DNA of 45,391 nucleotides from a virus. The stretch lies in IMG/VR virus record IMGVR_UViG_3300010397_000021, positions 1 through 45,391 of that record; one strand, 5' to 3'. Positions within the stretch are counted from its first letter, which is position 1, and every line of letters begins with the position of its first letter. Positions 1,215 through 27,655 of the stretch are shown here, piece after piece. The notes below the pieces were generated by a model. The model had not been told where the DNA came from and ran no database searches. It saw only the letters and a list, made by a program, of their open reading frames with translations. The position numbers and the translations under genes are program-made.

Positions 1215-2282
1215 CTAAATCACCTCCGGTTTGCGCCTATAAACGCGGCGGGTAATAGCAGTGGTGGCGTGTGACATCATCTTGCGAGCGCATTCGTCGT
1301 CTGGCGCATCACTAGAGGCTTTGGCGCGTATATCGTGCTCGGTAAAACGCCGTGTAATCTTTGTTTCCGCAAGCAGCCTCCCCATAAAGCGCTGCCATAT
1401 GGAATCAAACCCGCTGCATGTACCTTTTTCTTCATTAATATAAGATTGGCCGCGCTTACTACAGAAAAGCCATGGCGATATATCAACGGGGCGCACAGAT
1501 AAAGCATAATCCGCTGCGGCTCTCCGCTCTGCCGTCCATGCATATACAGTCTTTTTATTGGTTTTCTTTTTGGTCTTATGGCGCGTAATATGGATACCAT
1601 CGTCTCGGAAATCTTCTTTAGGGCGAATCCGAAGCAAATCACCTTTTGCCATGCCGGTGACTTCTTTCAGCCATGCATAGGCTTGCAGCATTAGAGTAGC
1701 ATCATTGCCATCGCGCTTAGGTTTGAGTAAATGCAATTCATCCATTTCCCAATCTTCTACATACCTGTCGCGCGGTGTTTCAATCTCTGATTCCTCATCG
1801 AAACGCACCTCACCTTTAAAGGGGTGCTCTTTGATGTACCCCCATCGAACAGCCTTGGTGAAGGCATGCTTAAGAATGGCTATTTCTCGTTTTGCGGAAA
1901 CTTTCGCATTTCGCTTATCAACGTATTTATAAATATCTTGAGGTGTGATTTCATCGAGATACATGTGACCAAAGACGATCCGGAGCTTTTTAATCTGGCG
2001 GATTTGTTCGCCTTGCGTTTTTGGAGCTTTAGTAGGGATGATCTCGTGTTTATAGCGATCTAATAGCTTTCCGATAGTCTGGGCATTCTCAACACCCTCT
2101 AAGCGCTCTGCCCAGGCCTTATACGCCTCTGAGGCTGTCTTTCCCAAGCGGAATAGTTGTTTGCCGTCCCATTTATATTCCATTCCCCGAGGAACGCTGT
2201 AATAGATAGCTCCATGCCGCTTAGACCACCTTTCGGGGAAACCTTTATTCTCAGGTTTACGCGGTTTTGGCATAGCCCTCAT
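1215..2282 (-). CDS. int: Phage integrase (tyrosine recombinase, lambda/P4-like), 355 aa
   Basis: C-terminal motifs 'FTEHDIRAKASSD' and 'MMSHATTAITRRVYRR'. ATGA overlap with the upstream DUF4224 gene. Adjacent to the att region. Confidence 0.9.
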   Translation of the reverse strand: MRAMPKPRKPENKGFPERWSKRHGAIYYSVPRGMEYKWDGKQLFRLGKTASEAYKAWAERLEGVENAQTIGKLLDRYKHEIIPTKAPKTQGEQIRQIKKLRIVFGHMYLDEITPQDIYKYVDKRNAKVSAKREIAILKHAFTKAVRWGYIKEHPFKGEVRFDEESEIETPRDRYVEDWEMDELHLLKPKRDGNDATLMLQAYAWLKEVTGMAKGDLLRIRPKEDFRDDGIHITRHKTKKKTNKKTVYAWTAERRAAADYALSVRPVDISPWLFCSKRGQSYINEEKGTCSGFDSIWQRFMGRLLAETKITRRFTEHDIRAKASSDAPDDECARKMMSHATTAITRRVYRRKPEVI

Positions 2283-2488
2283 GTGGCGTTCCAGTTCGGC
2301 TCGTTTCTAACCCTTACATTTTTTTCCATGACACCGCCAAGCATTTTCTCGACATGTGATCTTAAAATTACTAGGCTACCATCAGCACGAGGACGGAAAT
2401 CAATGCCAAGATACCGTAGCGCGCGTGCTTGCGCATCGTGACGCTCCTTGTCGGTTAGGGCTATGACTTCTTTCTCGGTGAGAAACAT
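2279..2488 (-). CDS. DUF4224-like small protein (excisionase/recombination directionality candidate)
   Basis: 'MFLTEKEVIALTDKERHDAQARALRYLGIDF' resembles the DUF4224 family usually found just upstream of phage integrases. Coupled to int by ATGA. Confidence 0.65.
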   Translation of the reverse strand: MFLTEKEVIALTDKERHDAQARALRYLGIDFRPRADGSLVILRSHVEKMLGGVMEKNVRVRNEPNWNAT

Positions 2489-2634
2489 TATTTTATCTCT
2501 TTTGAATACTCGTTTGCGTTATCAACTCCTGGTCGCTTGCACTTGGCTATAATCCAACGAGCGAGATCACCGGCATACCAGCCGAAGAATCCGCCAGCCA
2601 CCGCCAGAAACGTATATTGCGCTGCATCACTCAT
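2488..2634 (-). CDS. Small membrane protein, 48 aa (below ORF-track cutoff)
   Basis: Hand translation: MSDAAQYTFLAVAGGFFGWYAGDLARWIIAKCKRPGVDNANEYSKEIK. One TM segment. Its TAA overlaps the downstream ATG (TAATG). Confidence 0.5.
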   Translation of the reverse strand: MSDAAQYTFLAVAGGFFGWYAGDLARWIIAKCKRPGVDNANEYSKEIK

Positions 2635-2662
2635 TTAATTACCTCATCGGTTAGTTTTGTTT

Positions 2663-2863
2663 TCACGCGAGTACCTCAAGTAACTTTTTCCGTAGCTCCC
2701 ACTTCGCAGAGTTTTCGGCCTGCCAATCCTGCGGGGAATGGACAATGTGATCGACCTTGACCACACCGCGAACCATCCTAATGGCGTTTTTGATCGCCTC
2801 TACATCGTCATCGCGATATTCCTGGTCTAACAGCACAGTTAAAACCTTGGTTCTGTCGGTCAT
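2663..2863 (-). CDS. Hypothetical early protein, 66 aa
   Basis: ORF in the same-strand coupled chain. ATGA overlap with the upstream ORF at 2860-2863. Confidence 0.6.
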   Translation of the reverse strand: MTDRTKVLTVLLDQEYRDDDVEAIKNAIRMVRGVVKVDHIVHSPQDWQAENSAKWELRKKLLEVLA

Positions 2864-3126
2864 TTTCCCTCCTGATCGCTAGGTCGATTGTTCGCGTGGA
2901 GCTGCATGATCACCTCGGCCCGCTTGCGAAGGACAACCAACGCCGCCCCTACGTCGCCAGCCTCCAAGCGATGCTTCACATCGGTGACGTTGCCATGCTT
3001 GTCAGTGACCCACTGATTAGCCTCGCAACGCAACTTCCCATTTTGCCCATCGTTCAACGCGGGGTTGAAAACAATCCCGTGGAGACGGAGGGTCTTGATC
3101 TCTGCATTATCCATTGCTTGCCTCAT
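2860..3126 (-). CDS. Hypothetical early protein, 88 aa
   Basis: Same-strand ORF in the coupled chain. Confidence 0.6.
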   Translation of the reverse strand: MRQAMDNAEIKTLRLHGIVFNPALNDGQNGKLRCEANQWVTDKHGNVTDVKHRLEAGDVGAALVVLRKRAEVIMQLHANNRPSDQEGK

Positions 3127-3295
3127 CGTTTGATAGGGTTTCCTTGGTTATCTCTTTCAGAAAGTCCCGCATACGCACGACAATATCCCCCACGTCATCG
3201 CCTGACACGCTAAGGTCGAGACGTACCACATGCTTGGCAAAACCCTTCTCGTTTGCATTATTCCGCGTCTCATTAATCGTGTGGCTGAATTTCAT
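3107..3295 (-). CDS. Hypothetical early protein, 62 aa
   Basis: Same-strand ORF. ATGA overlap with the upstream ORF at 3292-3295. Confidence 0.55.
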   Translation of the reverse strand: MKFSHTINETRNNANEKGFAKHVVRLDLSVSGDDVGDIVVRMRDFLKEITKETLSNDEASNG

Positions 3296-3513
3296 TTTAC
3301 TTCTCCATCTGTTGCTCGGTTGGCCGCTATAAGCCTCACGTCTCCGGCTGCGGACACATCAACTTCATGATAATCTGCATCGATCACGACGCCCTGTTTC
3401 CCATTTTCTTTTGCGGCCATATGGGAAGCATTGGCGCGATCAATTGCCTTTCGCTGCGCCTCGCATTGCCGGATATAAGCGTCTGGAGAGGCATAATTGC
3501 TACTCAATGTCAT
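3292..3513 (-). CDS. Hypothetical early protein, 73 aa
   Basis: Same-strand ORF. ATGA overlap at 3510-3513. Confidence 0.6.
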   Translation of the reverse strand: MTLSSNYASPDAYIRQCEAQRKAIDRANASHMAAKENGKQGVVIDADYHEVDVSAAGDVRLIAANRATDGEVK

Positions 3514-3773
3514 GGTTCCTCGCCTGTTGATCGTTTGGCCTTGCGCTTCACCTGTTTACGGCGAGCCGCAGTCAGCTCGTCGCTCCTCCGGGCCCTAGCC
3601 ATCACCAGCAACCCCATCTTACGCGCTGGGAGCACCTTCACCCCACCCCGCACCTTCTTGACGATGCGGGTATCCACTACGTGAACCAAGCCGCAATCAC
3701 AGCAAGCTCGGCGGTGCTTATTCATCGTAGGAAAAATCCATTCGTCGTCAGTTACCTGGTAGTAATCAGTCAT
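3510..3773 (-). CDS. Hypothetical basic protein with Cys cluster, 87 aa
   Basis: Start moved to Met9 of the track ORF (MTDYYQV), which follows the RBS AGAGGGAG. 'RRACCDCGLVH' plus a Lys/Arg-rich tail suggests nucleic-acid binding. Confidence 0.55.
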   Translation of the reverse strand: MTDYYQVTDDEWIFPTMNKHRRACCDCGLVHVVDTRIVKKVRGGVKVLPARKMGLLVMARARRSDELTAARRKQVKRKAKRSTGEEP

Positions 3774-3957
3774 CAGCAACTCCCTCTGTTGAATCATTTT
3801 TTGTCTGATAGGCTATCGCGAACTTAACAGCCGCAGAGATCGGGAAAGCACCTGATGCCTCCCGCACCAGCTTCATCGTTTGCCATTGTCCATAGAACGC
3901 CATTCCCATGATAACCAGAATTCCTACCAGGCTGATAATTGCGACGAGGCCATTCAT
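3766..3957 (-). CDS. Small membrane protein, 63 aa
   Basis: N-terminal TM 'LVAIISLVGILVIMGMAFY'. ATGA overlap with the upstream ORF. Confidence 0.6.
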   Translation of the reverse strand: MNGLVAIISLVGILVIMGMAFYGQWQTMKLVREASGAFPISAAVKFAIAYQTKNDSTEGVADD

Positions 3958-4142
3958 GGCTGCTGGTCCTTAGATACGGATACCGTGACGCGCCGGACAT
4001 CATCGTAATGCAGGAGAGCGTCGGCCTTCCGTCGATAAAGGCACGGCATCGGATATTCGTTAGCGTGGTATCCGTTGAACTCCTCTATGTCGATTTTGCC
4101 GCTAACAAATCCGGCCCAGAATGTGGTGCGTCCTTTAATCAT
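3954..4142 (-). CDS. Hypothetical protein, 62 aa (short model of track ORF 3954-4292)
   Basis: Internal Met (MIKGRTTFW) is preceded by GGAGGGGAA and overlaps the stop of ORF 4139-4318 by ATGA. The long model needs a TTG start and overlaps that ORF entirely. Confidence 0.45.
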   Translation of the reverse strand: MIKGRTTFWAGFVSGKIDIEEFNGYHANEYPMPCLYRRKADALLHYDDVRRVTVSVSKDQQP

Positions 4143-4318
4143 TTCCCCTCCGGTTTTTCTACTTCTATTTGAGTTGTGGTAGGCGCGCTGTATTCGGTCC
4201 ATCGCTCGTAAGAACGCATCGTCAGACAACGGCAGCATTGCTCCGTAGTGGTGACGCCGTGCTTGCCTTGGACGGTCGAAACCACGTTCCAATGGTGCCA
4301 GTGCTCAAGACACGTCAT
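4139..4318 (-). CDS. Hypothetical Cys/His-rich protein, 59 aa
   Basis: Its ATG is preceded by the same GGAGGC(C)GGGGTCGTG junction as the gene starting at 4505. 'CLEHWHHW...CCRC' may bind metal. Confidence 0.45.
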   Translation of the reverse strand: MTCLEHWHHWNVVSTVQGKHGVTTTEQCCRCLTMRSYERWTEYSAPTTTQIEVEKPEGK

Positions 4319-4505
4319 CACGACCCCGGCCTCCTTCGTCTTCGATAGCAGCTATAGAGAACCTTAACCGAATGTCAGCGAGGTCGTTCAAACGATCCAG
4401 AAGCATAACAGTTGCCGCTCTACAATCGCCATTAGTGCTCGCAAGCGTGCTGAACAGTTTAGCTTCAAGGTCGGACTGTAAGAACCGCCGTTCGCCCTCA
4501 GTCAT
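4305..4505 (-). CDS. Hypothetical protein, 66 aa
   Basis: Start moved to Met27 (MTEGERRF), giving RBS GGAGG plus an ATGA-type overlap with the stop of 4498-5385. Confidence 0.5.
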   Translation of the reverse strand: MTEGERRFLQSDLEAKLFSTLASTNGDCRAATVMLLDRLNDLADIRLRFSIAAIEDEGGRGRDDVS

Positions 4506-5385
4506 CACGACCCCGCCTCCTGATGTCGAAGCGTTCCGACAGGGCGGAGAACGCGACTCGAAGACTCCGACGATAGCCTTCATCGATAGCGTCTTGCGTA
4601 TTAGCGATTAAACAATCCGCATCCCATAATGGCAGGCTCTTCCAGGCCGCAAGCATAACCTCAACCGCTTCGGCCTCATCAACCGCTTCCCGCTTCGTTG
4701 GTACGATAGCTAAAATTGCTTTTGCTAGGCCCTTTCTATCATCTATGAAGCCATCCCTATCCATGAAGTTCTCTGCGGCATCGTAAATGGCATTCCCTAA
4801 TATTTCCAAATCAGTGCGCTCATCCGGCTGCTGCACTTCCCGCTCCGGTGCATAGACGATCCTTTTGATCTCGATCGCTAGCAATTCTCCCTTGAGGGCG
4901 GCGAGGCCTTCCCGAGATAAATAATACTCGTCATCGCATCGCCTGTATTTCAAATGTTTCAATAGTGCGTGTGTTGGGTCTAACGACAACTCGACCGGCT
5001 GCTCGGGCCAGTGAGGATCATGGACCCAATCCGGGTGTTCATTGGCGCAATCTTCACACCGATCAGCCGCCCATACGCCGTGTTTGCAACGGCTCGGCTG
5101 ATCGTTTGGCGCAGGAGGCTCGGCGATAAGGGCTTCACCCTGCCTATCCGGGGCGCAAGTTGGAGCGTCCGAAGGCGCTCCCATAAGCCTTTCTGGTTGA
5201 CCTCCTGCATTAACTGAAATATCGGTCCGCTGGTCGGTGCTCGATGCGATGCGATATCCATTTTCAAACCATTCCCAGGCGACGGCTTCCATCATGGCGT
5301 TGATGGATTCGTGCTCGGTAAGCTTGACCTTTTTAAACCCCTCCTCGAAGATTCTCCGGCACTCTATTTCCATTTCAGCCCCCAT
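4498..5385 (-). CDS. Hypothetical early protein, 295 aa
   Basis: Long same-strand ORF. Cys/His cluster 'CKHGVWAADRCEDCANEH'. No family recognised. Confidence 0.7.
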   Translation of the reverse strand: MGAEMEIECRRIFEEGFKKVKLTEHESINAMMEAVAWEWFENGYRIASSTDQRTDISVNAGGQPERLMGAPSDAPTCAPDRQGEALIAEPPAPNDQPSRCKHGVWAADRCEDCANEHPDWVHDPHWPEQPVELSLDPTHALLKHLKYRRCDDEYYLSREGLAALKGELLAIEIKRIVYAPEREVQQPDERTDLEILGNAIYDAAENFMDRDGFIDDRKGLAKAILAIVPTKREAVDEAEAVEVMLAAWKSLPLWDADCLIANTQDAIDEGYRRSLRVAFSALSERFDIRRRGRDD

Positions 5386-6392
5386 TGTTCAGCGCAAGCT
5401 TGCGCCATTATTTCATGTGCATCACCCTTTACTCCAAGAACGCGTGTCGCACGCATTGCCTGCGCCCCATCTTTTATCGACACCGGCTTCAGGCCACGCA
5501 TGAAAGCATCGACCGTCTTTACATCAGGGGCGCAATTGCTAGCGAGATAGCCCACTTCTTCATGTGTCGCTATGCCTCCGGCTTCTCCGGATGATCTTCT
5601 CGCGTAGAGCGCCACCTTAGTGTAATACTCCATCGCGTCGCGGATACGGCCCCACGCTTGCCGCAAATCGTGGTTGATTACCGGAATCTCACACTGGTCA
5701 AGATTGGTGGGGAGGTTTGCCGGAGCATCACAACTGGCGTCGTTAGCCTCATCCGAGTTTACGGATGACCTCCCCATAACTGAATATTCACGCGTTTGGT
5801 TGCGGCTATTCCATGTGTCCGCTATAGCCTGAGCGAAATCCCTGGTAAGGCCGTATCCTTTGAATCCACTATCTGTTTCCCAGCCAGTTTCCGAGGGGGT
5901 TAATGATAATGTCCAAACTCTATCTTCAGGGTCAGCATCCTTTTCCGAGGCAACGACATAGAGTTTCTTCTCTGAATACCCACTCGCATACACCGGTGCC
6001 GGAGACGACGGAGGTGGGGCCGCATCCGGATCGGGCCACGGCTGAATCGGAATGATGGCGGGGGATGTTTCGAGGCGACGGCTTTCGCCGCAGTCTTCCA
6101 CGTCCTTACGGATAGCGGCATCCCCCATATCAAAAGCTGATTGCCCGAGCTTGAAGAATAGCGATTTTGAACTGGTGGGGGGCGTTACTGCGGCAGTCGG
6201 TTCACCACTGGGTAAGCCCAATGGAACACCCCCCCTAAGTTGTTCGGCCTCGTGCTCGCGGACGAGGGTCAAGAACCGCTCCTTCGCTTTATTCCAAGCG
6301 GCGTGTGCTGTCCATGCAGTGCAATCCAATGGAAAGCTCTCGTTTTCTAATTGCCGGATCAGCGATGAAGGGATTGGCGGTACGTTTGACAT
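5364..6392 (-). CDS. Hypothetical early protein, 342 aa
   Basis: Long same-strand ORF with a Pro-rich linker. No family recognised. Confidence 0.7.
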   Translation of the reverse strand: MSNVPPIPSSLIRQLENESFPLDCTAWTAHAAWNKAKERFLTLVREHEAEQLRGGVPLGLPSGEPTAAVTPPTSSKSLFFKLGQSAFDMGDAAIRKDVEDCGESRRLETSPAIIPIQPWPDPDAAPPPSSPAPVYASGYSEKKLYVVASEKDADPEDRVWTLSLTPSETGWETDSGFKGYGLTRDFAQAIADTWNSRNQTREYSVMGRSSVNSDEANDASCDAPANLPTNLDQCEIPVINHDLRQAWGRIRDAMEYYTKVALYARRSSGEAGGIATHEEVGYLASNCAPDVKTVDAFMRGLKPVSIKDGAQAMRATRVLGVKGDAHEIMAQACAEQWGLKWK

Positions 6393-6559
6393 TATTTATC
6401 CTCAATAAATATAGAACAGTCCCGGCCTTCAGCTTCAAAGACTTTTGCAGCCTCCTTAGCATCTTTTAGACTCTCGAAAGAGAGCCCCAATTGCCCATCT
6501 ACATAGAGCTTGTATACGGCGATTTTGGTTGAATCATTCAGCGGTTCGGGCTTGTTCAT
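6392..6559 (-). CDS. Small hypothetical protein, 55 aa (below ORF-track cutoff)
   Basis: Hand translation: MNKPEPLNDSTKIAVYKLYVDGQLGLSFESLKDAKEAAKVFEAEGRDCSIFIEDK. ATGA overlap upstream and TAATG overlap downstream. Confidence 0.5.
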   Translation of the reverse strand: MNKPEPLNDSTKIAVYKLYVDGQLGLSFESLKDAKEAAKVFEAEGRDCSIFIEDK

Positions 6560-6795
6560 GGCGTCAACTCAAAGCGTTGGGGTTGTTTTTTCAAGAACAT
6601 AGCTTCGGCATCCTTTGTAGCCTCTTTCAGGGCGGCGAAGATGGCTCGAACCTGCTTGTCCGAGTATGAGTAGTTGGACCGATTGGAGAGGTTGCCGATC
6701 AACCGGATATGCTTAATGGCATTGTTGACGCGTTTCGTGGCGAGCCGCTTGAAGGCGGCGTTGTCGCCAGCGCGATCACTCAGCGATCCGGTCAT
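6556..6795 (-). CDS. Hypothetical protein, 79 aa
   Basis: Same-strand ORF in the coupled chain. Confidence 0.6.
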   Translation of the reverse strand: MTGSLSDRAGDNAAFKRLATKRVNNAIKHIRLIGNLSNRSNYSYSDKQVRAIFAALKEATKDAEAMFLKKQPQRFELTP

Positions 6796-6902
6796 TTTGC
6801 ACCCCCTCTACATAGCTCGTTAACGCAGCGCCACATCAAACCAAAGGATACCTTCTGCCATCCGCAGTGCGGGCATTTGTGGGCTATCAGCGAATCGGTC
6901 AT
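6792..6902 (-). CDS. Zn-ribbon-like peptide, 36 aa (short model of track ORF 6792-7046)
   Basis: MTDSLIAHKCPHCGWQKVSFGLMWRCVNELCRGGAK has CxxC...CxxxxC. Its ATG overlaps the stop of the 54-aa TM ORF by ATGA. Confidence 0.4.
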   Translation of the reverse strand: MTDSLIAHKCPHCGWQKVSFGLMWRCVNELCRGGAK

Positions 6903-7063
6903 GGGACCCCCGCACAGGAGCGAATAATGATTATAACCAACAATGATAGCGCAAATCCCCGAGGCGACCATACAATTAACAAGAGTGCCCATACCAAGGG
7001 CCATGTGGCATCGTGTATAGCGATCCATGAGAATACGGCACTCCATGCGTCATGAATCGTCAT
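6899..7063 (-). CDS. Small membrane protein, 54 aa (alternative frame to track ORF 6792-7046)
   Basis: ATG at 7061-7063 lies 6 nt after GAGAGGAG. Hand translation MTIHDAWSAVFSWIAIHDATWPLVWALLLIVWSPRGFALSLLVIIIIRSCAGVP is strongly hydrophobic. The 84-aa track ORF has no RBS. Confidence 0.45.
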   Translation of the reverse strand: MTIHDAWSAVFSWIAIHDATWPLVWALLLIVWSPRGFALSLLVIIIIRSCAGVP

Positions 7064-7100
7064 GCTTTGCTCCTCTCCAAATGGGTACTGGTGTCCGTAA

Positions 7101-7484
7101 TCATTGAGAATCTCCCTTCACGATTCGATAGCCAGCGTCATAGAGAACTTTCAGAAGAAGGCCGGTTTCTTCGCCATCGAGCGTATCGCAGGCCTCAAGG
7201 ATTGTCCCTGCGACTTGCTGCCAAGGCACCTCTACCGGCGGCATGGCGGCGATTGCGGCTGTGGCCACCTTCTCACAGGTCGAGAAGTATGCCCCGGGTA
7301 GAAGAGGTTCGATAGCCTTGGCGACCGCCTGAACCCTATCCGCAGATGGTTGGGGGAGCGCCGCGAGATACACCTCGACAACGCCCTCAACCGTCCAGCC
7401 ATCCCTTCCGGCTTCAGCTACATAATCCTCAGCCGCTCGGATGGCCTTTGGTTTCTCATCAATCGATAAAGTTCGGTCGCTCAT
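7101..7484 (-). CDS. Hypothetical protein, 127 aa
   Basis: Same-strand ORF. ATGA overlap at 7481-7484. Confidence 0.65.
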   Translation of the reverse strand: MSDRTLSIDEKPKAIRAAEDYVAEAGRDGWTVEGVVEVYLAALPQPSADRVQAVAKAIEPLLPGAYFSTCEKVATAAIAAMPPVEVPWQQVAGTILEACDTLDGEETGLLLKVLYDAGYRIVKGDSQ

Positions 7485-7642
7485 AACGAATCTCTCAATC
7501 TTTTTAGTTCAAATACAGCTACTGCCTGGAAAACATCAGCGTCAAACTGCTTCCCCTTTTTCGCCTTTATACATCCTCGCTCAGCTGCCTCAATAACGGC
7601 CAATTCGTCTAAAGAGAAACGGTCAATCGATCTGGTGGTCAT
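7481..7642 (-). CDS. Hypothetical protein, 53 aa
   Basis: Start moved to Met15 (MTTRSIDRF), giving an ATGA overlap with the stop of 7639-7866. Confidence 0.5.
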   Translation of the reverse strand: MTTRSIDRFSLDELAVIEAAERGCIKAKKGKQFDADVFQAVAVFELKRLRDSL

Positions 7643-7866
7643 AGGGGAAGCTCCGGTAACGGCATCCAGTTGGTGGGTTTCCATTCGTCAAACATTTGGG
7701 CTAGAGGGCTTCCGTCATCAGGATTATGCCAGTGACCCATAGTTTCCGAAGGCGCATGCCAAGCGCACATGTAGACGTCGCAACCATCGGTGGCGATAAA
7801 CTTCGACCCATCTTTAGGTGCGGTTTCAATAGGCCGCCAACTGGCGTTCGTGTCCAGGCGTGTCAT
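7639..7866 (-). CDS. DUF551-like phage protein, 75 aa
   Basis: '[14 protein letters not shown]...' and C-terminal '[11 protein letters not shown]' match the DUF551 signature. Confidence 0.7.
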
Positions 7867-8189
7867 ATCTTAACCCTTCCTGCCAAAACGCCCTCGACAT
7901 CCTCAGTTTCCGCGCCGGTACGTAAATCTCGGACGATAGTGTAAGGATGTAGTACATAGATTTTAACTTGTTGCTCATTAACGTTTCCGTTCACACTCAC
8001 CCTTGCAAAGCTGGTATGTCTGCGCTTTTGTGGGTCAAATGGCGAAATGCGGGTGAGCCGGTGGATGCCCGTTTCCGATTCTGGAATATCGGTATAAACG
8101 GCATACATTTTGCGGAGCATGTCCGCCCAAGCCTGGCACTCCTCAGAAGGATTCCCCGCCTCTACTATCAGTCCGGTTTCCTGGCTCAT
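7863..8189 (-). CDS. Truncated class-I release factor (RF2)-like protein lacking the GGQ domain, 108 aa
   Basis: Three segments align by eye to E. coli RF2. (1) '[20 protein letters not shown]' vs '[20 protein letters not shown]'. (2) '[23 protein letters not shown]' vs '[23 protein letters not shown]', including the SPF codon-recognition tripeptide. (3) '[30 protein letters not shown]' vs '[29 protein letters not shown]'. No GGQ anywhere. Start set at MSQETG (ATGA overlap). Confidence 0.7.
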
Positions 8190-8473
8190 GCCGCTCGCCC
8201 CATTCTGTTGATGGCTTCGTAGATGAGCTTGTCTGCCGCCTTCTCGTCGCATTCGATCAGGCTACCCTCTTGGTCGATCTTTCCTTTCACGACCTTCGCA
8301 GCGACAAGTGCCGTGTAAATATCGTAATCCCAACCGCTATTACCGAACGGCCGTTTGCCAGAGAAGCCTTCTCCCTCTTGCCAAAGAGTTTTGAGCAACG
8401 CTCTGAAATAGTCACCGATAGTTTCGGCTTCGGCGTCATTAGCCTGCATGGGCGTATAAAGAATATCGGTCAT
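8186..8473 (-). CDS. Hypothetical protein, 95 aa
   Basis: Start moved to Met45 ([10 protein letters not shown]), giving an ATGA overlap with the upstream stop. Confidence 0.6.
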
Positions 8474-8718
8474 AGTTCCTCCTCGGTGTTTGTACCCTTT
8501 GATCGTTTCTCGTAAGCCAATGCCGCCTTGCATTGATTTAATGCGTACTCTTCGGATCGGTCGAGCCTTCCGTTTTGAGAGCCTTTGAATATTCCGTATC
8601 CGCAAGGTTCACCTACCGTCATGGGATCACCATTAGGATGGCAAGGATAGGGATTATCAAAAATCCAATATTCCGGGTTGCCGTTCACGAAGTTTTTCCA
8701 AATCCAGTGTTTCTTCAT
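8470..8718 (-). CDS. Hypothetical protein, 82 aa
   Basis: Start moved to Met20 (MKKHWIWKNF), giving an ATGA overlap. Confidence 0.6.
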   Translation of the reverse strand: MKKHWIWKNFVNGNPEYWIFDNPYPCHPNGDPMTVGEPCGYGIFKGSQNGRLDRSEEYALNQCKAALAYEKRSKGTNTEEEL

Positions 8719-8858
8719 TTTAAATCCATGAAACAGTAAAGCTTCGTATGCCCTACCTTGCGGCAGTCTTCCCATTTATACACCATAAGCCAAGCAGCTA
8801 ACGAAAGAACGCTGGTGATCCCAATTATAATGGCGAGAGTTGTCATAGCGGTTTTCAT
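8715..8858 (-). CDS. Small membrane protein, 47 aa
   Basis: Start moved to Met32 (MKTAMTTLAIIIGITSVLSLAAWLMVY), giving an ATGA overlap. One TM segment. Confidence 0.5.
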   Translation of the reverse strand: MKTAMTTLAIIIGITSVLSLAAWLMVYKWEDCRKVGHTKLYCFMDLK

Positions 8859-9118
8859 TTGGTTTCTAATTCCCTCGTAGGGTTGTCGTTCGCTGGCGTC
8901 TTCGCTTTGTGATCCGCATATTGCTTCCGCGTCAACACGGTCGTATTCCACTCATCATGGGGGCATCTCAGCGAGAAGTAGCATTCCCGTTCATCGCTAT
9001 GCTGCATAACGAGTCCCTCTGCTTCCTCCGGCCATCCTCCATAGTGCTTATCAACTTTGTCGCATAACGAGGCTACGTTGTCCTTGCACCAGTCGTGTTT
9101 TATTGGATACTTTGACAT
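8855..9118 (-). CDS. Hypothetical protein, 87 aa
   Basis: Same-strand ORF. Confidence 0.6.
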   Translation of the reverse strand: MSKYPIKHDWCKDNVASLCDKVDKHYGGWPEEAEGLVMQHSDERECYFSLRCPHDEWNTTVLTRKQYADHKAKTPANDNPTRELETK

Positions 9119-9138
9119 GCGGTCACCCTACATTTACA

Positions 9139-9336
9139 TTAGGCGACTTTAGCAACGCGCTCTGCCACGCTGCTTTCACCATCGAAAGTTTCCATCCATT
9201 TTGATAGGATGTCTGCGGCCTCCTTTTTATCGAGACCAAAATCCATCCGTAATGCCTGTCCAGCGCCGAACATGTTCATATTGCCGCTTTCACGAAGCTC
9301 GTCTAAATATTCGAAGTATTTTTCCATAATCTTCAC
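9139..9336 (-). CDS. Hypothetical protein, 65 aa (possibly DUF5049-like)
   Basis: 'LDELRESGNMNMFGA' resembles the sG.tNMf motif I associate with DUF5049. Family assignment is from memory only. Confidence 0.5.
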   Translation of the reverse strand: MKIMEKYFEYLDELRESGNMNMFGAGQALRMDFGLDKKEAADILSKWMETFDGESSVAERVAKVA

Positions 9337-9355
9337 TCCCGATCCGTTAATAGGG

Positions 9356-9541
9356 TTATCGCCGTTTGACCGGCAACAACGCCTCTTTCCTCATTTCGTC
9401 CATCCATGCGATCACCTCGGGATCGGCCAGCAGTCCATCGAGCGCGGCCTTATCGAATTGGTGACCGCCAGGTGAGAGCAGCTCCTCTGCGTGAACAGCA
9501 ATCGAGCCGAGCTTGCTCAGCAGACTGAAACTTGGATGCAT
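9356..9541 (-). CDS. Hypothetical protein, 61 aa
   Basis: The track ORF begins with TTG. First ATG is MHPSFSLL at 9539-9541. Confidence 0.45.
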   Translation of the reverse strand: MHPSFSLLSKLGSIAVHAEELLSPGGHQFDKAALDGLLADPEVIAWMDEMRKEALLPVKRR

Positions 9542-9552
9542 TAGCTTGTTGC

Positions 9553-9666
9553 TCACGCGGCCTCGCAATCTGCCGTTGCTTTGGCTTCGATCTGCTTCCG
9601 AATTTCCTTCAGAACCTTGTTTGTCAGCTTGTCGTAACTGATCTGTTTTTTCCGCTTCTTCGTCAT
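9553..9666 (-). CDS. Small basic peptide, 37 aa (below ORF-track cutoff)
   Basis: ATG at 9664-9666 follows CAGGAGGGTAAT. Hand translation: MTKKRKKQISYDKLTNKVLKEIRKQIEAKATADCEAA. Confidence 0.45.
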   Translation of the reverse strand: MTKKRKKQISYDKLTNKVLKEIRKQIEAKATADCEAA

Positions 9667-10126
9667 ATTACCCTCCTGATACCGTTATCCAAGTTACTTC
9701 GAGCGGATGCGGCGCTAGCCAACCGCACCCGCTTGCACACCGTGGTCGGGCATGTGCCTCCCTCTTGGTGCTATGCAGGATTTCGCCACCAAGTTGTCTG
9801 CGCTTTAACGACTCTCGTCACCCCTGCTGCCACCTTTCACCCTTGCGGGTATCCCGTTGACCGTCTCTCCGGCCTGTCTCGTTTTCCCCGTCTGGGTTAA
9901 GGCTTGTCATCGCCACAAATTACCGCCTACGTCGGCGTAGCTCTACGCTAGAGGGCTTTCACCCGCGAAGGCTGACTTAATGCCTTCCAGATTTTAAGTC
10001 TCTCGACTAAGGCTTCTGCCTCGCTATCCCATTCTTTCGTTTGGGCGCTCCGCTATTATCTAACGACCCGGACGGATAGGGTCGATCCCAGATGCTCCCG
10101 CTACGCAGTCACACCAGGCGATTCCG
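9667..10126 (-). ncRNA. Candidate structured non-coding RNA or long structured leader (class unknown)
   Basis: A 460-nt gap with no minus-strand ORF of 60 aa or more, in an otherwise overlap-packed operon, and visibly GC-richer than its surroundings. Hairpins: 9703-9712/9723-9732 (10 bp), 9764-9770/9787-9793 (7 bp), 9974-9980/9994-10000 (7 bp), 10064-10069/10079-10084 (6 bp), 9927-9931/9936-9940 (tetraloop). The 10-bp stem has a G-U pair only when read on the minus strand (A-C mismatch on plus). Confidence 0.3.
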
Positions 10127-10300
10127 TTAACTGGCTATCTTTTTGACCAGAGCCTCTGCTTCTTGCATCCAGGTCGCGCTAATCAGCCCATTTCTGCAAA
10201 GCAGGCCTTTTTCGTGCATAAGAAACGCGGTTTGCAACATTGCGATGAGATCGTTACGTTGCGTTGCCAGTTCCATGATCTTTTTGTCTTTGATGTCCAT
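10127..10300 (-). CDS. Hypothetical protein, 57 aa
   Basis: Start moved to Met16 (MDIKDKKIMELA), which avoids a 23-nt overlap with the upstream gene. Confidence 0.5.
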   Translation of the reverse strand: MDIKDKKIMELATQRNDLIAMLQTAFLMHEKGLLCRNGLISATWMQEAEALVKKIAS

Positions 10301-10322
10301 GTACGTTATCCCTATTCTTTCT

Positions 10323-10586
10323 TCAAACACTGTGCTTGCCGTCAAACGCAGCTTTCATCTTGTAATAATCGTCCATATCCCATACCAAATCGGCCAATGT
10401 CCGAATAGCCTTAACGATAGCTTCATACGCCGTGATCATCTCGCCATCCTCAGCCTCAACCCGCATCCTGACTATGGTATCGAGCGGGATGCTGTTAAGT
10501 GCGGCGGATGATATAATAACGCCTATTAGGCTGGTTTCAGCATCTAATTTCATGGTTTCGCTGAATAATGGGATAATGTCAGCCAT
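10323..10586 (-). CDS. Hypothetical protein, 87 aa
   Basis: Same-strand ORF with an 8-nt overlap with the upstream gene. Confidence 0.6.
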   Translation of the reverse strand: MADIIPLFSETMKLDAETSLIGVIISSAALNSIPLDTIVRMRVEAEDGEMITAYEAIVKAIRTLADLVWDMDDYYKMKAAFDGKHSV

Positions 10587-10836
10587 GGTTTTCTCCCTCG
10601 ATTAACACATATCTTGCCCTGAGACATCCGCCCTCAAGGTATTCATTGAGCGTGGTAATCTGGTATCCCTGCTTGCGCAGATCGCTGATGCGTGACCGCA
10701 AAGCAAAGCCGCGCGCGAAATCATCCCAAGTAATTCCGTGCATGCCTTTTTCCTGCAGCTTGCGCAGCACCATAGCCATGGCACACGGCATGTCTTTGGG
10801 ACAGGGAGGGGGTATGTAAAGCTCTAGCTGAATCAT
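10579..10836 (-). CDS. Winged-helix DNA-binding protein (putative), 85 aa
   Basis: 'ITWDDFARGFALRSRISDLRKQGYQITT...RARYVL' fits the wHTH pattern common in phage early regions. Confidence 0.5.
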   Translation of the reverse strand: MIQLELYIPPPCPKDMPCAMAMVLRKLQEKGMHGITWDDFARGFALRSRISDLRKQGYQITTLNEYLEGGCLRARYVLIEGENHG

Positions 10837-11153
10837 GTGGCGCTCCTATTCGCTGCGCGTTCGTTGGCATTCAACGTCCGCAGCAGGTCCACCCATACTT
10901 TAGCGCTATCATACCTTACTCTTGCCTTGTTCGCCGCCTTGCGAGATTTAACCATAATATCGAGATGCTTCTTATAATCAGGATGGCGCAGAGCAAAGGC
11001 CTCCTTCGCCGCCGCCGATGATTCATTGCATTCCACCGAAAGCTGAGAGAGGAGGGGCTTTTTATTTTCCTCCAGCAACTCTGCTGCAGCCTGAGCTTCC
11101 GCCCATGCCTCGCCAAGCGTTACCAGTTTTTCATGTATGTCCTGCGGATTCAT
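10833..11153 (-). CDS. Hypothetical coiled-coil protein, 106 aa
   Basis: Same-strand ORF, ATGA-coupled, Ala/Glu/Lys-rich. Confidence 0.6.
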   Translation of the reverse strand: MNPQDIHEKLVTLGEAWAEAQAAAELLEENKKPLLSQLSVECNESSAAAKEAFALRHPDYKKHLDIMVKSRKAANKARVRYDSAKVWVDLLRTLNANERAANRSAT

Positions 11154-11389
11154 TAGAAAGGCACCTCGTCAAAAGAAGTTTCGCGCGCTTGCGGTTTCTT
11201 TGCTTCTGATTTAAGTTTTGCCTTAAGTCGGAAATATTTCTTATTTCCATCCCTGGACACATTTATCCAGCCATTGAGCCAGTATTCCTTGCCATCAATA
11301 GTGATATTTCCGGTATAATCGGCATCCGATTTCCCTGCGCGCATGGCATCATTTTTAAATAATGCTCCCTGATTATCCTCTTTAGACAT
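11153..11389 (-). CDS. Small ssDNA-binding-like protein with SSB-type acidic C-terminal tip, 78 aa
   Basis: Ends in 'ETSFDEVPF' (compare E. coli SSB '...DFDDDIPF'). The N-terminal 'GALFKND...DYTGNITIDGKEYWLNGW' looks like a mini OB fold. Sits directly downstream of the annealase. Confidence 0.5.
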   Translation of the reverse strand: MSKEDNQGALFKNDAMRAGKSDADYTGNITIDGKEYWLNGWINVSRDGNKKYFRLKAKLKSEAKKPQARETSFDEVPF

Positions 11390-12092
11390 GCGCAGCCCCC
11401 TTGTTTATATCGTTAAATCCCTGTGACATCCCGGCCTTTTGCAACAGATCGGCCTTCATATTGTTCTTAATGTCTTCCAATTGATTAAAAATCTCTGGAT
11501 CGCCGCGCTTAAATACGGTTAGCTCGGGCTTATATTTTCCCCAGACAGCCCCAAGCTCTTTTTCATCTTCAACAGAGCGCAATTCATCCGCTATGGCTTC
11601 CCATTTGGCATTCTGCTTCTTAGCGGTCTCAAATCCAGCGCGCTGATCCAGCTTAACTTTAGTCCAGGGATCAACCGACCATCCCTTAAACACCCATTTG
11701 CCATTGCGCTGTTCAGCTTTGCATGGCACCCATACAGCGTCTAAATCGTATAAATAGCGGCCTATTCCCCACAAAACACCTGCGCGCTTAATCGCGTCTG
11801 AAATGGCCCCCTTTTCACTCTCTACATCCGTATCTCCAGCCCCATCGCTTTTATAAATCCACTTATCTTCTATATTAATTCCTAAGCGGCAGATAATCCG
11901 ACCTTTTGCTGTTTCAGAAATCTCATTACTCCATCCATGCTGGCCGCATACATCGTCTAAGCGATTAAACACATCCCGAGCATCGATATATGCCAAAGCC
12001 AATGCAGATGTACCATCACTGGTGAAGTGTTGCGCACGCCAGCTGACGGCATCCTTGGGAAAAGGCTCAAGCAATTTTGCTAGATCGATCAT
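11382..12092 (-). CDS. Rad52/Sak-like single-strand annealing protein, 236 aa
   Basis: 'LAYIDARDVFNRLDDVCGQHGW' and 'EKGAISDAIKRAGVLWGIGRYLYDL' match the Rad52_Rad22/Sak SSAP signature. Confidence 0.8.
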   Translation of the reverse strand: MIDLAKLLEPFPKDAVSWRAQHFTSDGTSALALAYIDARDVFNRLDDVCGQHGWSNEISETAKGRIICRLGINIEDKWIYKSDGAGDTDVESEKGAISDAIKRAGVLWGIGRYLYDLDAVWVPCKAEQRNGKWVFKGWSVDPWTKVKLDQRAGFETAKKQNAKWEAIADELRSVEDEKELGAVWGKYKPELTVFKRGDPEIFNQLEDIKNNMKADLLQKAGMSQGFNDINKGAAHV

Positions 12093-12267
12093 TTAAGTAT
12101 TCTTTTGTAAAAACGTTAATAAACCCGATAACTTCATTGTAAGTTTCTTTTTTCGCGCGTTCGTAACTCCATGCGCCGGTAGGATTCGGTCCGACAGCAT
12201 CTGTTATTTTATCTATTTCGCGTTGAGCATAGCGCTCAAGAAATGCTATAAAGTTTTCCGGTGTCAT
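12067..12267 (-). CDS. Hypothetical protein, 66 aa
   Basis: Start moved to Met13 (MTPENFIAFLERY), giving an ATGA overlap with the 37-aa ORF upstream. Confidence 0.5.
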   Translation of the reverse strand: MTPENFIAFLERYAQREIDKITDAVGPNPTGAWSYERAKKETYNEVIGFINVFTKEYLNDRSSKIA

Positions 12268-12377
12268 GGCTGGCGCCCTTTCTTTTCTTTTGCTTCTTTC
12301 CATTGCAAAATCCCGCCCGCTGCAGCCACTGCGAAGAATCCCAGCATGGCGACGGATATAACCTTATCGATCTGCAT
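12264..12377 (-). CDS. Small membrane peptide, 37 aa (below ORF-track cutoff)
   Basis: Hand translation: MQIDKVISVAMLGFFAVAAAGGILQWKEAKEKKGRQP. One TM segment. Confidence 0.4.
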   Translation of the reverse strand: MQIDKVISVAMLGFFAVAAAGGILQWKEAKEKKGRQP

Positions 12378-12585
12378 TTTTGGCCTCCTGTAACCGGCAC
12401 AGCCAATCCATACACATGCTAGGCCCCGTCATATCGTCAGGCGTATGAATGATCGGTCCAGCGTAGGGCTTAAGCGCAGCCGCCCTTTGATCGAAATGGC
12501 TATCCAGAAAAGCCGCATAGAAGCAAAGCATCATCAGCGGGACTATGACGACCGGCGAGGAGATGTTGAATGTAAGGGATTTCAT
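12364..12585 (-). CDS. Membrane protein, 73 aa
   Basis: N-terminal TM 'SSPVVIVPLMMLCFYAAF'. ATGA overlap upstream. Confidence 0.55.
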   Translation of the reverse strand: MKSLTFNISSPVVIVPLMMLCFYAAFLDSHFDQRAAALKPYAGPIIHTPDDMTGPSMCMDWLCRLQEAKNADR

Positions 12586-12998
12586 AATTCTCCCCTAAAC
12601 TGAGGTACGGCAATAGCCGCGAACATCTTTGTAAGTTCATCCTGGTAATTTATGGGCTTTACTCGCAACGCATTGAACAAACGCTCGGAAGCAGCAGCGT
12701 ACATATTCTCATGGGTATAAGGGTAGGGGCTGAGATCGTACTGATTGTCTTCAAGCTCTTTGATCTCGGATGCGGAATCGGACCATAGCCGTTCGCCCAC
12801 TACCTCCATAACGCAATGAAGACCGTGTGCCGTCCATGCGCGGCGATGTTTGTGCAAAATGGTGGTTATGGCTGCGAGTATTTCCTTGAAAGCGGCCTGA
12901 TCTTCCATGACGCGCTTATAGGAGTCCGGACAATCCACTTCTGGCTGCCAGGTTGCGTCCATGTTCGTGCCGCGAAAATCGTCTGGATAGTTTGACAT
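12582..12998 (-). CDS. First gene of the leftward early operon, hypothetical, 138 aa
   Basis: Start moved to MSNYPDDF (RBS GGGAGG). The track start (TTG at 13035-13037) lies inside the predicted -10 box. Confidence 0.6.
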   Translation of the reverse strand: MSNYPDDFRGTNMDATWQPEVDCPDSYKRVMEDQAAFKEILAAITTILHKHRRAWTAHGLHCVMEVVGERLWSDSASEIKELEDNQYDLSPYPYTHENMYAAASERLFNALRVKPINYQDELTKMFAAIAVPQFRGEL

Positions 12999-13028
12999 AT
13001 AACCTCCCATAAAAGTGCTTATGAAAGT

Positions 13029-13069
13029 ATTATACAAAATGTATAGATAGCCGTCAATACAAAATGTAT
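13029..13069 (-). promoter_or_regulatory. Leftward early promoter (PL-like) with two operators
   Basis: Minus strand reads TTGACG (13052-13057), a 17-nt spacer, then TATAAT (13029-13034). The 13-bp palindrome ATACAAAATGTAT occurs at 13032-13044 (overlapping -10) and 13057-13069 (abutting -35). Confidence 0.6.
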
Positions 13070-13135
13070 GATTTTGGCATAAAATAATGCATTATTTTTA
13101 TTCTATTGGAAAATTAGAGTCTTATAGAATAGCGA

Positions 13136-13330
13136 TTAAAGGAATCCCGCCGGATCGATTATCATGTCCTGTTTTTTTTCACAGTCAAAGCAGCGACGCG
13201 CTAGATGGATGGTATAATAATTATTCAGATGTTTCTTATCATCATCGCTACACCACTCCTCCCATCGATGCCAGATACACCGCTTCTTAGTAAGGGTGAC
13301 GGATGAAATCTTGTTAAATAAATTCCGCAT
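13136..13330 (-). CDS. Small Cys/His-rich protein, 64 aa; AT-rich moron downstream of the repressor
   Basis: 'RCIWHRWEEWC...RRCFDCEKK'. Lies between the repressor gene and PL in an AT-rich segment, analogous to the lambda rex position. Confidence 0.45.
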   Translation of the reverse strand: MRNLFNKISSVTLTKKRCIWHRWEEWCSDDDKKHLNNYYTIHLARRCFDCEKKQDMIIDPAGFL

Positions 13331-13441
13331 AAATATTAATCTTGCAGACGAGTTGAAAATGTGTGAAATTTATCGCTCGATAAAAAAATATCAAGGGAGA
13401 TATTATGCAGGATCACCTCACCACGCCGATTATCGAAGAGG

Positions 13442-13984
13442 TCAAGCAGAACCCAGAGGAATTATGTCTAAAAGCTTGTGAAGCGCTTCTGTACTTGTCG
13501 GATTTGCTCCGCCAGATACAGCGGTGTGGAGTCCGCTCATTATCTTCACTGCCTCCGGCAAATGATGTGCCTGGTACAGATCAACCGCATTAGAAAATGC
13601 CTTTTCCAAATCTTTTTTATCGATCATTTTTTCTTTGACAAGGAAATGAATAATTGTTTTGAGCGTATATAAGATGGCGACATCCGTTTGATTAATTCCT
13701 TCTTCATGAAAACTGTCTTTCGCCGCGCCCTCTCCGTCCAAAATCCAAGTATAGGTTGTCCCCAATAATTTAGCATATTGTTTGGCGGCGCGGATAGAGA
13801 TGTTGCGGTTTCCATTCTCATGCGAGCGATAAGTAGGCTCAGGCACTCCTTTGGCATTGATAAAATCGGTTGCAGTTTCATAGCCCGCGTCTTCACGGCA
13901 TCGCTTTAACCTGGCGGCTGCTTCTAAATTTATTTTCGGCATGCTACCCACGGTAGCAATTTTGTTTTCTAAATCACGATACAT
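13442..13984 (-). CDS. XRE-family HTH repressor (CI-like), 180 aa
   Basis: HTH 'LKRCREDAGYETATDFINAKGVPEPTYRSHENGNRNISIRAAKQYAKLLGTTYTWIL'. Divergent from the Cro-like gene. No S24 peptidase motif seen. Start set at the first ATG (MYRDLENK), since the track start is GTG. Confidence 0.8.
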   Translation of the reverse strand: MYRDLENKIATVGSMPKINLEAAARLKRCREDAGYETATDFINAKGVPEPTYRSHENGNRNISIRAAKQYAKLLGTTYTWILDGEGAAKDSFHEEGINQTDVAILYTLKTIIHFLVKEKMIDKKDLEKAFSNAVDLYQAHHLPEAVKIMSGLHTAVSGGANPTSTEALHKLLDIIPLGSA

Positions 13985-13990
13985 TATGCG

Positions 13991-14019
13991 TTGACACACC
14001 GTTATACATTTTGTATTGT
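13991..14019 (+). promoter_or_regulatory. Rightward early promoter (PR-like) with operator
   Basis: TTGACA (13991-13996), a 17-nt spacer, then TATTGT (14014-14019). Operator ATACATTTTGTAT at 14004-14016 overlaps the spacer and -10. The ATG of the downstream gene is only 7 nt past -10. Confidence 0.6.
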
Positions 14020-19556: not shown

Positions 19557-20215
19557 CCATTGCTCTTCTATGCCCAACACGCGCGCGGCCCAAGCAATGC
19601 AAACGCATGATTGAAAGCGCATACAATACCAGTAAGGATACAGTTAATATTTATCTCGGTTTTACAGATGAATCATATTGTGGTGGCGGATATCAACTGC
19701 CCGATTATCCCACCGCGCATAAATGGAATATGCTAGCAATTGAAGCGATGAAAGACCCGAGCAATAAGCTGTTTATGCTTGCTGCTGATGACATGATATT
19801 CACAACGCCATGCTGGGATCAAGCCCTGCTCGATCATTACAATGCATTGGATAATAAAGTTCACGTATATGCGCTGCAAGATAGCCGTGATCCCAATGGC
19901 ACACCACATCCGATAGTAACCCGGGAATATATCGAAGCACTGGGATGGTTTTTGCCACCGATTTTTATGCATTGGTATGTCGATAGCTGGACCGTGGAGA
20001 TTGCCAAAGCCAATAATTGCTTCACGCATATGAAGGATTATTTGCTGGTACACGATAAGCCCAGCGATAAAGGACAAGCTGATGAAACACATAATCGCAT
20101 ACGCGGTATGGGATGGCATGAACGGGATAAATATGTAGCAGAGAAATGCACAAATTACCTTGAGCAGCAGATATTACGATTATCGCTTGCGATGAAAATG
20201 CAGAGGGCTGCATGA
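19553..20215 (+). CDS. Glycosyltransferase, GT-A/GT2-like, 220 aa
   Basis: 'IALLCPTRARPKQCKRMIESA' (N-terminal beta-alpha), 'LFMLAADDMIFTTPCWD' (DxD-like), 'YVDSWTVEIA'. Confidence 0.5.
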   Translation: MTIALLCPTRARPKQCKRMIESAYNTSKDTVNIYLGFTDESYCGGGYQLPDYPTAHKWNMLAIEAMKDPSNKLFMLAADDMIFTTPCWDQALLDHYNALDNKVHVYALQDSRDPNGTPHPIVTREYIEALGWFLPPIFMHWYVDSWTVEIAKANNCFTHMKDYLLVHDKPSDKGQADETHNRIRGMGWHERDKYVAEKCTNYLEQQILRLSLAMKMQRAA

Positions 20216-26901: not shown

Positions 26902-26947
26902 TGGGAGGTCTCTTGTTTAGGATTTTCATAATGGCACAATTGCTATT

Positions 26948-27646: not shown

Positions 27647-27655
27647 AGGAGCATT

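Follow-up and report, generated by a model that had tools for sequence, protein, structure and literature searches.

The mini-RF2 gene

We analysed a window of 45,391 nucleotides (nt), the whole of IMG/VR virus record IMGVR_UViG_3300010397_000021, which contains a short gene related to that of bacterial release factor 2 (RF2, PrfB). This mini-RF2 gene is located at 7863–8189 on the minus strand and codes for a protein of 108 amino acids (aa), P0001, that lacks the GGQ motif; its assignment is based on reading of the open reading frame (ORF), Pfam, phmmer, the prfB model and gene calls. It starts with an ATG codon at 8189 and ends with a TGA codon at 7865–7863. There is an alternative, longer reading of 129 aa from an ATG at 8252, but the 108-aa start is favoured by two independent gene calls on the same contig and by the N-termini of homologues. 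Both ends of the gene lie in ATGA overlaps on the minus strand, one at 8186–8189 with the stop codon of the upstream gene (95 aa, 8186–8473, phrog_15618) and one at 7863–7866 with the start codon of the downstream gene (75 aa, 7639–7866, phrog_924), and both of these immediate neighbours belong to PHROG families of unknown function.

Alignment of P0001 to Escherichia coli RF2, using a reference sequence whose numbering is consistent with the PDB alignments, pairs residues 2–32 with RF2 125–155, 33–71 with 189–227 and 72–108 with 320–355, with identity at 46 of 107 aligned residues (43%). Strand beta1 and helix alpha5 occupy residues 7–30 (8100–8171, minus strand, as are all segments of the gene; E. 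coli RF2 ~130–153), as defined by the AlphaFold2 secondary structure and the alignments, and the tip of helix alpha5 reads NPSEE where RF2 has SGGTE, with the Glu (E17) retained. At a first junction (residues 32/33, 8091–8096) the alignments show an in-frame loss of the beta2-beta3 hairpin of domain 2 (RF2 156–188), which is what an earlier note, made from the sequence alone, had described as the missing middle of domain 2. The codon-reading head follows at residues 39–66 (7992–8075) and consists of strand beta4 (ETGIHRLTR), the SPF loop and strand beta5; the SPF tripeptide itself can be read directly at residues 49–51 from codons TCG CCA TTT (8037–8045). At a second junction (residues 71/72, 7974–7979) RF2 228–319 is lost in frame, and with it domain 3, the GGQ motif (250–252) and most of the switch loop, including Trp319. 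The remainder of the protein (residues 72–108, 7866–7976) corresponds to domain-4-derived strands and a short helix, and has K76 and I77 where the family described below has a near-invariant R-S. Domain 1 (RF2 1–124) is missing from P0001, whose start corresponds to RF2 ~125, and the last ten residues of RF2 (356–365), which form the C-terminal helix, are also absent.

P0001 retains the codon-recognition core of RF2

The Pfam PCRF profile (PF03462) matches P0001 with E=4.4e-12 (46.7 bits, against a cut-off of 24) through the C-terminal part of the profile only, and phmmer against RF2 chains in the PDB (E=3.5e-13) aligns P0001 in three collinear pieces. We saw no match to the RF-1/GGQ domain (PF00472), even at E≤10. 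The earlier note had quoted three RF2-like peptides, which we locate at residues 11–29, 40–62 and 77–104, and had proposed searches with these two Pfam families as a check; its description of an RF2 codon-recognition core that includes SPF and is without domain 1, the mid-domain-2 hairpin and the GGQ domain is confirmed by both profiles and alignment. There is no sign of a split release factor. Six-frame translations of the whole window were searched with hidden Markov models (HMMs) of domain 3 and domain 1 and gave no match; the phage encodes no separate GGQ-domain protein, and no remnant of the GGQ domain or domain 1 was found in the window or in ten related loci.

The whole-protein prfB model of NCBIfam (TIGR00020) also matches P0001 (E=2.7e-25), although the score of 89.1 bits is under the family cut-off of 370 bits. 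The PrfH model (TIGR03072) does not match P0001, and matches long-form relatives only weakly (E 1e-4 to 1e-5); RtcB is not among the called neighbours of mini-RF2. PHROGs has no dedicated short-form family, and the sole PHROG match of P0001 is to positions 176–215 of the 355 in the profile of phrog_19918, a family of full-length release factor (RF) size and unknown function. None of the families in PADLOC-DB 2.0 was matched by P0001 or four of its relatives. Judged by its sequence, P0001 is a domain-level member of Pfam PCRF and is classed as neither RF2/PrfB nor PrfH; it falls outside RF2/PrfB because domain 3 with its GGQ and domain 1 are absent and the score lies below the whole-protein cut-off. 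Its architecture also predicts that P0001 would not release peptides.

An AlphaFold2 model of P0001, built with 53 family sequences, has a mean predicted local distance difference test (pLDDT) score of 94.7 and a predicted template modelling (pTM) score of 0.85, and shows one long helix under a five-stranded sheet. All significant Foldseek matches in the PDB are to RF2 or RF1, many of them ribosome-bound, with query-normalised template modelling (TM) scores of 0.75–0.81, such that the structural comparison suggested in the earlier note gives a confident model that superposes on ribosome-bound RF2. A confident RF2-like fold implies that both internal deletions take out whole structural modules, with a compact domain 2/4 core remaining.

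A family of mini-RF2 proteins in phage-like contigs

A search of 1.84 billion representative proteins with P0001 gave 1733 matches, 253 of them at E≤1e-10. We read the architecture of the best 150 of these 1733, as representatives at 50% identity, and about 85 of the 150 are short, lack GGQ and domain 1, and have the same architecture as P0001. Most family members are 108–190 aa long, with a few that carry extra domains reaching ~270 aa, and the distance from the SPF loop to the RSY strand of domain 4 is 21–56 residues, compared with ~115 in RF2. P0001 has the features that define the family (108 aa, no GGQ, an SPF-RSY spacing of the short class, set at under ~60 residues, and a phage context), and carries the GxHR, SPxD, RRHTxF and RxY..PY motifs except for R76K and S77I.

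Two sub-forms can be distinguished, a long form that retains the beta2-beta3 hairpin, and a short form without it to which P0001 and ten others belong (P0032, P0033, P0034, P0038, P0046, P0047, P0068, P0090, P0140 and P0160). P0001 is the most reduced member of the family, and its lineage is a singleton, the nearest relative being 55% identical; most other clusters are singletons too, and the only close copies in the family are those on contigs L008–L010, which are identical to each other. Names are automatic only ('protein subunit release factor B'), and by structure the top viral match is an uncultured Caudovirales phage protein of 164 aa named 'PrfB'. There is some further variation within the family. 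The high-GC short forms P0033, P0038 and P0068 share a C-terminal tail ending LAExxGW, and extra domains are present in P0036, P0077, P0104 and P0114, examples being a Cys-rich extension at the C-terminus of P0036 and additional N-terminal sequence in P0104 and P0114. A 227-aa protein, P0100 (L035 1409–2092), lacks domain 1 and has a shortened, degenerate domain 3 in which GGQ is replaced by GGD; it may represent an evolutionary stage between complete RF2 and the minis.

Other databases added little to this set. A profile made from the mini alignment and run against a set of 5.8 billion sequences was dominated by true RF2, with P0180 as the sole new mini, and P0031 (1204 aa, 12 'matches') was dismissed as a low-complexity false positive. 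No short form was found by tblastn of P0001 and a long-form relative against 50,697 GenBank phage records; apparent short matches there were shown by ORF reading to be gapped alignments to full-length RF2 of Lak phages and bacterial contaminants. One narrow pattern (DFAR[MI]LR..) searched in GTDB genomes returned only full-length Patescibacteria RF2, and no prophage mini. There is no dedicated model for mini-RF2 in Pfam, NCBIfam, PHROGs or PADLOC.

Leaving aside three members on contigs of ~1.5 kb, which are too short to judge, the 11 members with sufficient flanking sequence are all in phage-like neighbourhoods. The relatives among them are in IMG/VR contigs (L007; L008–L010, which share one sequence; and L025) or in phage-like metagenome contigs (L030–L033 and L035–L037), the latter with integrases, terminase, portal and recombination genes, HNH and GIY-YIG endonucleases, and methylases. 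Their mini genes sit amid small early- or accessory-type genes, but all-against-all BLAST of the neighbourhoods matched only the minis themselves, and thus revealed no conserved neighbour. Contig L033 is a 52.7-kb phage with an SU10-type portal, in which mini-RF2 (10001–10453) is part of an array of small early genes (7679–13833) that also holds a gene with a SocA/Panacea antitoxin domain and another with a weak match to Ocr; the 1.3 kb beyond mini-RF2 has no called gene and no tRNA. In L007, an 891-aa ORF (4694–7369, minus strand) about 2.5 kb from mini-RF2 looks, from reading of the sequence, like a large terminase with an intein or homing-endonuclease-like insert.

The location of these genes in early or accessory arrays, in L033 among the weakly Ocr-like and SocA/Panacea-domain genes, is circumstantial support for a role of mini-RF2 in anti-defence, as a shield for the A site of the ribosome or as the decoy for ribosome-targeting defence that the earlier note had proposed. 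The members also occur sporadically, evolve fast and mostly form singleton lineages, a behaviour typical of conflict genes. We nonetheless regard this role as improbable, given that there is no PADLOC match and no conserved neighbour, and that shielding would itself stall ribosomes. A possible link to RelE-type toxins would come through their preference for stop codons.

Conservation and divergence

Conservation was counted over 88 aligned minis, using P0001 numbering. Five residues (G41, H43, R57, Y78 and G104) are invariant in all 88. The SPF tripeptide is nearly so at its first two positions (S49 in 87 and P50 in 84), whereas F51 is present in 66, with Tyr in eight and His in another eight. 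Other residues of the head are likewise well conserved (D52 in 87, R56 in 86, E39 in 85, F61 in 82, T59 in 81 and H58 in 71), as are R76 (85) and P82 (86), and E17 is present in 64 with Asp in a further 20. P0001 itself departs from the family at R76K, S77I and the helix alpha5 Gly-Gly, which is replaced by Pro-Ser, although Pro-Ser is common to several relatives.

We also compared the columns that are conserved among 37 full-length RF2 proteins with the same columns in the minis. Those kept in the minis include E195, G197, H199, R200, R203, S205, P206, R213, H214, T215 and F217 in the beta4-SPF-beta5 head, the core of helix alpha5, and R324, Y326, P330, Y331, D335 and G351 in the domain-4 strand. 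In contrast, constraint is relaxed on the switch loop (W319, G320, Q322 and I323), on P224 in the hinge and on the glycines of the hairpin, and a Trp equivalent to W319 is retained in only 19 of the 88 minis, P0001 not being one of them. This is the pattern to be expected if codon reading has been retained and coupling to domain 3 lost.

Two further explanations can be considered in the light of this pattern. One is that the RF2 core now serves as a stable scaffold in a role that has nothing to do with ribosomes, for which the additional N- or C-terminal domains of P0036, P0077, P0104 and P0114 and the only partial retention of Gly-Gly at the helix alpha5 tip could be cited; however, the invariant residues extend beyond the hydrophobic core to the surface loop and strands with which RF2 reads stop codons, and we consider the scaffold explanation very improbable. 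The other is that the free domain-2 sheet acts as a sponge for an ArfA/BrfA-type factor or another RF2-binding protein, and so disables non-stop rescue. ArfA/BrfA-type factors dock on RF2 strand 213–217 and on Trp319, the ArfA-pairing strand (RRHTSF) and the equivalents of V198 and F217 are conserved in the minis, and the Foldseek matches include ArfA-RF2 and BrfA-RF2 complexes. But Trp319, which ArfA requires, is lost in 69 of the 88 minis, including P0001, and ArfA and BrfA are each confined to some bacteria, while minis occur in phages of both low and high GC. Moreover, SPF is dispensable for the ArfA route (PMC5378476) and yet is the most conserved motif of the family, so its near-invariance points instead to stop codon reading. 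A sponge is therefore distinctly unlikely.

Mean pairwise distances are 0.54 between minis and RF2, 0.59 among minis and 0.38 among RF2 proteins. As the minis are farther from RF2 than RF2 proteins are from each other, their shared motifs are maintained by selection on the minis, and do not reflect recent capture. A neighbour-joining tree of 100 core columns lacks resolution, and for 28 of the 88 minis the nearest neighbour is a full-length RF2. We note that the high-GC minis (P0033, P0038 and relatives; L025, L032) have D-F-A after the helix alpha5 tip, as does L016, a high-GC full-length RF2 that we take to be actinobacterial, and that P0001 has A-W-A at this position, with the Trp of E. coli RF2. 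At the level of sequence, this split hints at either repeated capture from, or co-adaptation to, the RF2 of the host.

The earlier note had allowed that the gene could be a decaying pseudogene fragment. On this reading it would be a functionless piece of a captured prfB gene, and the singleton status of the P0001 lineage, with its nearest relative only 55% identical, and the unusual substitutions at R76 and S77 are in keeping with this. However, there is no interruption in the ORF, which is translationally coupled to the genes on either side; both deletions keep the reading frame and fall at the boundaries of structural modules, with a confidently modelled remainder; and there are no domain 1 or domain 3 remnants anywhere in the genome. 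There are in addition dozens of diverged homologues with the same GGQ-less architecture and invariant functional motifs. We consider decay to be exceedingly improbable, and the gene thus survives the test that the note had set for it.

Genomic context and stop codon usage

The ends of the window are a 123-nt exact direct repeat (1–123 and 45269–45391), indicating that the phage genome is circular and complete, with a length of about 45.27 kb. It has a GC content of 47.5%, the same contig is present in ENA, and we found no near-identical DNA among GenBank phages or E. coli genomes and no close relative among the 50,697 GenBank phage records or the E. coli genomes. From its gene content, which includes integrases, DUF4224, a Rad52-family recombinase, large terminase, lysozyme and holin, the genome is identified as that of a temperate tailed phage. 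A second tyrosine integrase gene (284 aa, PF00589) runs across the point of linearisation; the ORF at 138–659 on the plus strand is its 3' part. Between the terminase and head genes (18747–21395, plus strand) there are sugar-metabolism genes, namely a glycosyltransferase-8-like ORF (a weak match) and a gene for an NAD-dependent epimerase / GDP-mannose-dehydratase-like protein (E=6.5e-40), which may have a role in modification of surface polysaccharides. A 575-aa ORF (22623–24350, plus strand) has a single match among GenBank phages, to one stretch of Pelagibacter phage Mosig at 27% identity, where the matched features are annotated 'hypothetical protein | putative methyltransferase'; the phage as a whole lacks a close cultured relative.

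By context, the mini-RF2 gene is within a co-directional leftward operon (1215–13999, minus strand) that contains a Rad52-family recombinase gene (11382–12092), many small genes of unknown function, DUF4224 (2279–2488) and a tyrosine integrase gene (1215–2282). This layout resembles lambda pL and the lambdoid leftward early region, and it is by this synteny that we refer to the operon as 'early'. The previous assignment of the gene to an early, host-takeover operon is therefore upheld in part, in that a leftward early-type operon runs from the Rad52-family recombinase to DUF4224 and the integrase, but 'host-takeover' is an analogy.

About 72% of the genes in the leftward operon end in TGA, mostly within ATGA overlaps, whereas the late structural genes (26476–44873, plus strand) mostly have TAA stops, which RF1 can also read; TAG accounts for 8–12% overall. 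This TGA-early and TAA-late split may be relevant to mini-RF2, or may be ordinary codon-usage biology. It bears on the possibility that mini-RF2 is a gene-specific regulator of recoding or coupling, which binds stop codons and tunes a few sites in place of inhibiting termination globally. Candidate sites would be +1 frameshifting, readthrough or hopping at UGA contexts, reinitiation at the ATGA overlaps of its own operon, or the frameshift in host prfB. The mini-RF2 gene is itself within a chain of ATGA overlaps, and in strains with weakened release factors ribosomes pile up on stop codons, readthrough and frameshifting rise, and the expression of overlapping genes may change (PMC5373646). Nevertheless, we found no recoding site, as long in-frame extensions after TGA are either spurious ORFs or neighbouring genes, and no suppressor tRNA is present in the window or in seven related loci. 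ATGA overlaps are also commonplace in phage operons, and an occupant of the A site would shut out tRNA along with RF2. We therefore think a gene-specific regulator unlikely.

A possible role in delaying termination

[quoted passage not shown] Free RF2 is compact, binds the stop codon loosely at first via the beta4-beta5 motif, and opens within tens of milliseconds (PMC6561943). We propose that mini-RF2 would enter the A site at UGA or UAA in a manner resembling the compact, pre-accommodated form of RF2. Being unable to release the peptide, it would be a competitor of RF2, and on UAA also of RF1, and would prolong the pre-termination state, such that termination is transiently slowed or re-tuned in early infection. 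The expected consequences would be an accumulation of ribosomes at stop codons, altered coupling of overlapping genes, and a loss of host protein output. That mini-RF2 holds the A site at UGA and UAA without hydrolysis, and delays termination early in infection, is a tentative reading to which we attach just under an even chance.

The roles offered by the earlier note included a termination inhibitor, a readthrough factor and a perturbation of prfB autoregulation. Of these options, the conservation pattern agrees best with a termination inhibitor. A readthrough factor is mechanistically weak, because an occupant of the A site excludes near-cognate tRNA and RF2 alike, and would delay termination without shifting the ratio of RF to tRNA. 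Any effect on prfB autoregulation would be a side effect that opposes the inhibitor, with more frameshifting leading to more RF2.

Several observations do not sit easily with inhibition of termination. Loss of Trp319 and the switch loop removes what supports the extended state of RF2, and binding may thus be weak and transient; we looked for compensating positive charge in the mini core, and it was not significant. About 90% of the genes of the phage itself have TGA or TAA stops, and a strong inhibitor would consequently harm the phage too. There is no consistent shift towards TAG in the mini-bearing phages, with the exception of L008/L009, and hosts with the prfB frameshift would respond by raising RF2. 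P0001 also deviates at the near-invariant R76 and S77 and at the helix alpha5 Gly-Gly, and neither a conserved partner gene nor a target site was found. In view of the lost switch-loop contacts, the TGA and TAA stops of the phage, the lack of a TAG shift and the prfB response, a transient and dose-dependent delay fits better than a hard shut-off.

If mini-RF2 does act in this way, a handle on termination could be used for host shut-off, for timing of the overlapping early genes, or for protection of stop codons from ribosome-dependent defence nucleases. The family predicts stop codon-specific ribosome binding without release, which if true would be a new host-manipulation strategy, and mini-RF2 would be a natural minimal module for UGA/UAA recognition by the RF2 head, separated from domain opening, with possible use as a tool for codon-specific ribosome stalling or profiling. 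Should the prediction fail, the invariance of the codon-reading residues would still need explaining.

Comparison with known release factors and their relatives

P0001 is like RF2 in its homologous domain 2/4 core, with SPF, the RRHTSF strand and the alpha5 Glu all kept. Unlike RF2, it lacks domain 1, which lies at the L11 stalk, as well as the GGQ domain, the Trp319 switch loop, the hairpin and the C-terminal helix, and it is phage-encoded and no housekeeping gene. PrfH (RF-H, TIGR03072) is similarly a shortened RF paralogue without domain 1, and acts on special ribosome states, but in contrast to P0001 it is catalytic with a GGQ, has a diverged codon-recognition region, and has RtcB as a partner.

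Class I release factors are known in other phages, including the Lak, Agate, Jade and other huge or recoded phages, but these are complete and GGQ-bearing, and are thought to support termination or code switching, often beside suppressor tRNAs; the phage-encoded release factors described so far are full-length. We found no description of a GGQ-less phage RF2 in the full-text literature searched, a scope that does not extend to subscription-only papers, and a survey of release factor evolution makes no mention of phage or viral forms (PMC6514570). What is new is thus the standalone RF2-reader architecture and its lineage, with presumably the opposite function to RF2, whereas the fold is known.

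Engineered GGQ-mutant RF1 and RF2 (e.g. GAQ) offer a functional parallel to what we propose, as they read the stop codon without hydrolysis and are used to trap termination complexes, and such mutants are dominant-negative in vivo. They are however full-length, with domains 1 and 3 and the switch loop providing stable extended binding, and mini-RF2 is without those parts. We know of no natural, virus-made protein inhibitor of bacterial translation termination, and mini-RF2, if it acts as suggested, would be the first natural protein that inhibits bacterial termination through mimicry of codon reading by a release factor.

The closest functional analogues of mini-RF2 are natural, catalytically dead relatives of release factors that enter the A site without release, namely Dom34/Pelota and glutamine-less bacterial aeRF-1-like families, and the inactive bacterial aeRF-1-like families have been proposed to halt translation (Burroughs & Aravind 2019, PMC6514570). 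These belong to the non-homologous archaeo-eukaryotic RF1 superfamily, with an RNase-H-like hydrolase domain, and are cellular; they retain an inactive middle domain, and Dom34 has lost the codon reader that mini-RF2 has kept. Mini-RF2 would then be to the bacterial lineage of release factors what Dom34 and other dead paralogues are to eRF1. It may be that phages have repeatedly carved the RF2 head into a dead decoding-head mimic that parks on UGA or UAA as a handle on termination, although we put this broader view somewhat further below evens.

The modular dismantling of a class I release factor also has a precedent in ArfB/YaeJ, ICT1 and C12orf65, of which mini-RF2 is the mirror image: they retain the hydrolase and lose the reader, and mini-RF2 retains the reader and loses the hydrolase. 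If the proposed role is correct, release factors would have been dismantled in both directions, to the hydrolase only in ArfB/ICT1 and to the reader only in mini-RF2.

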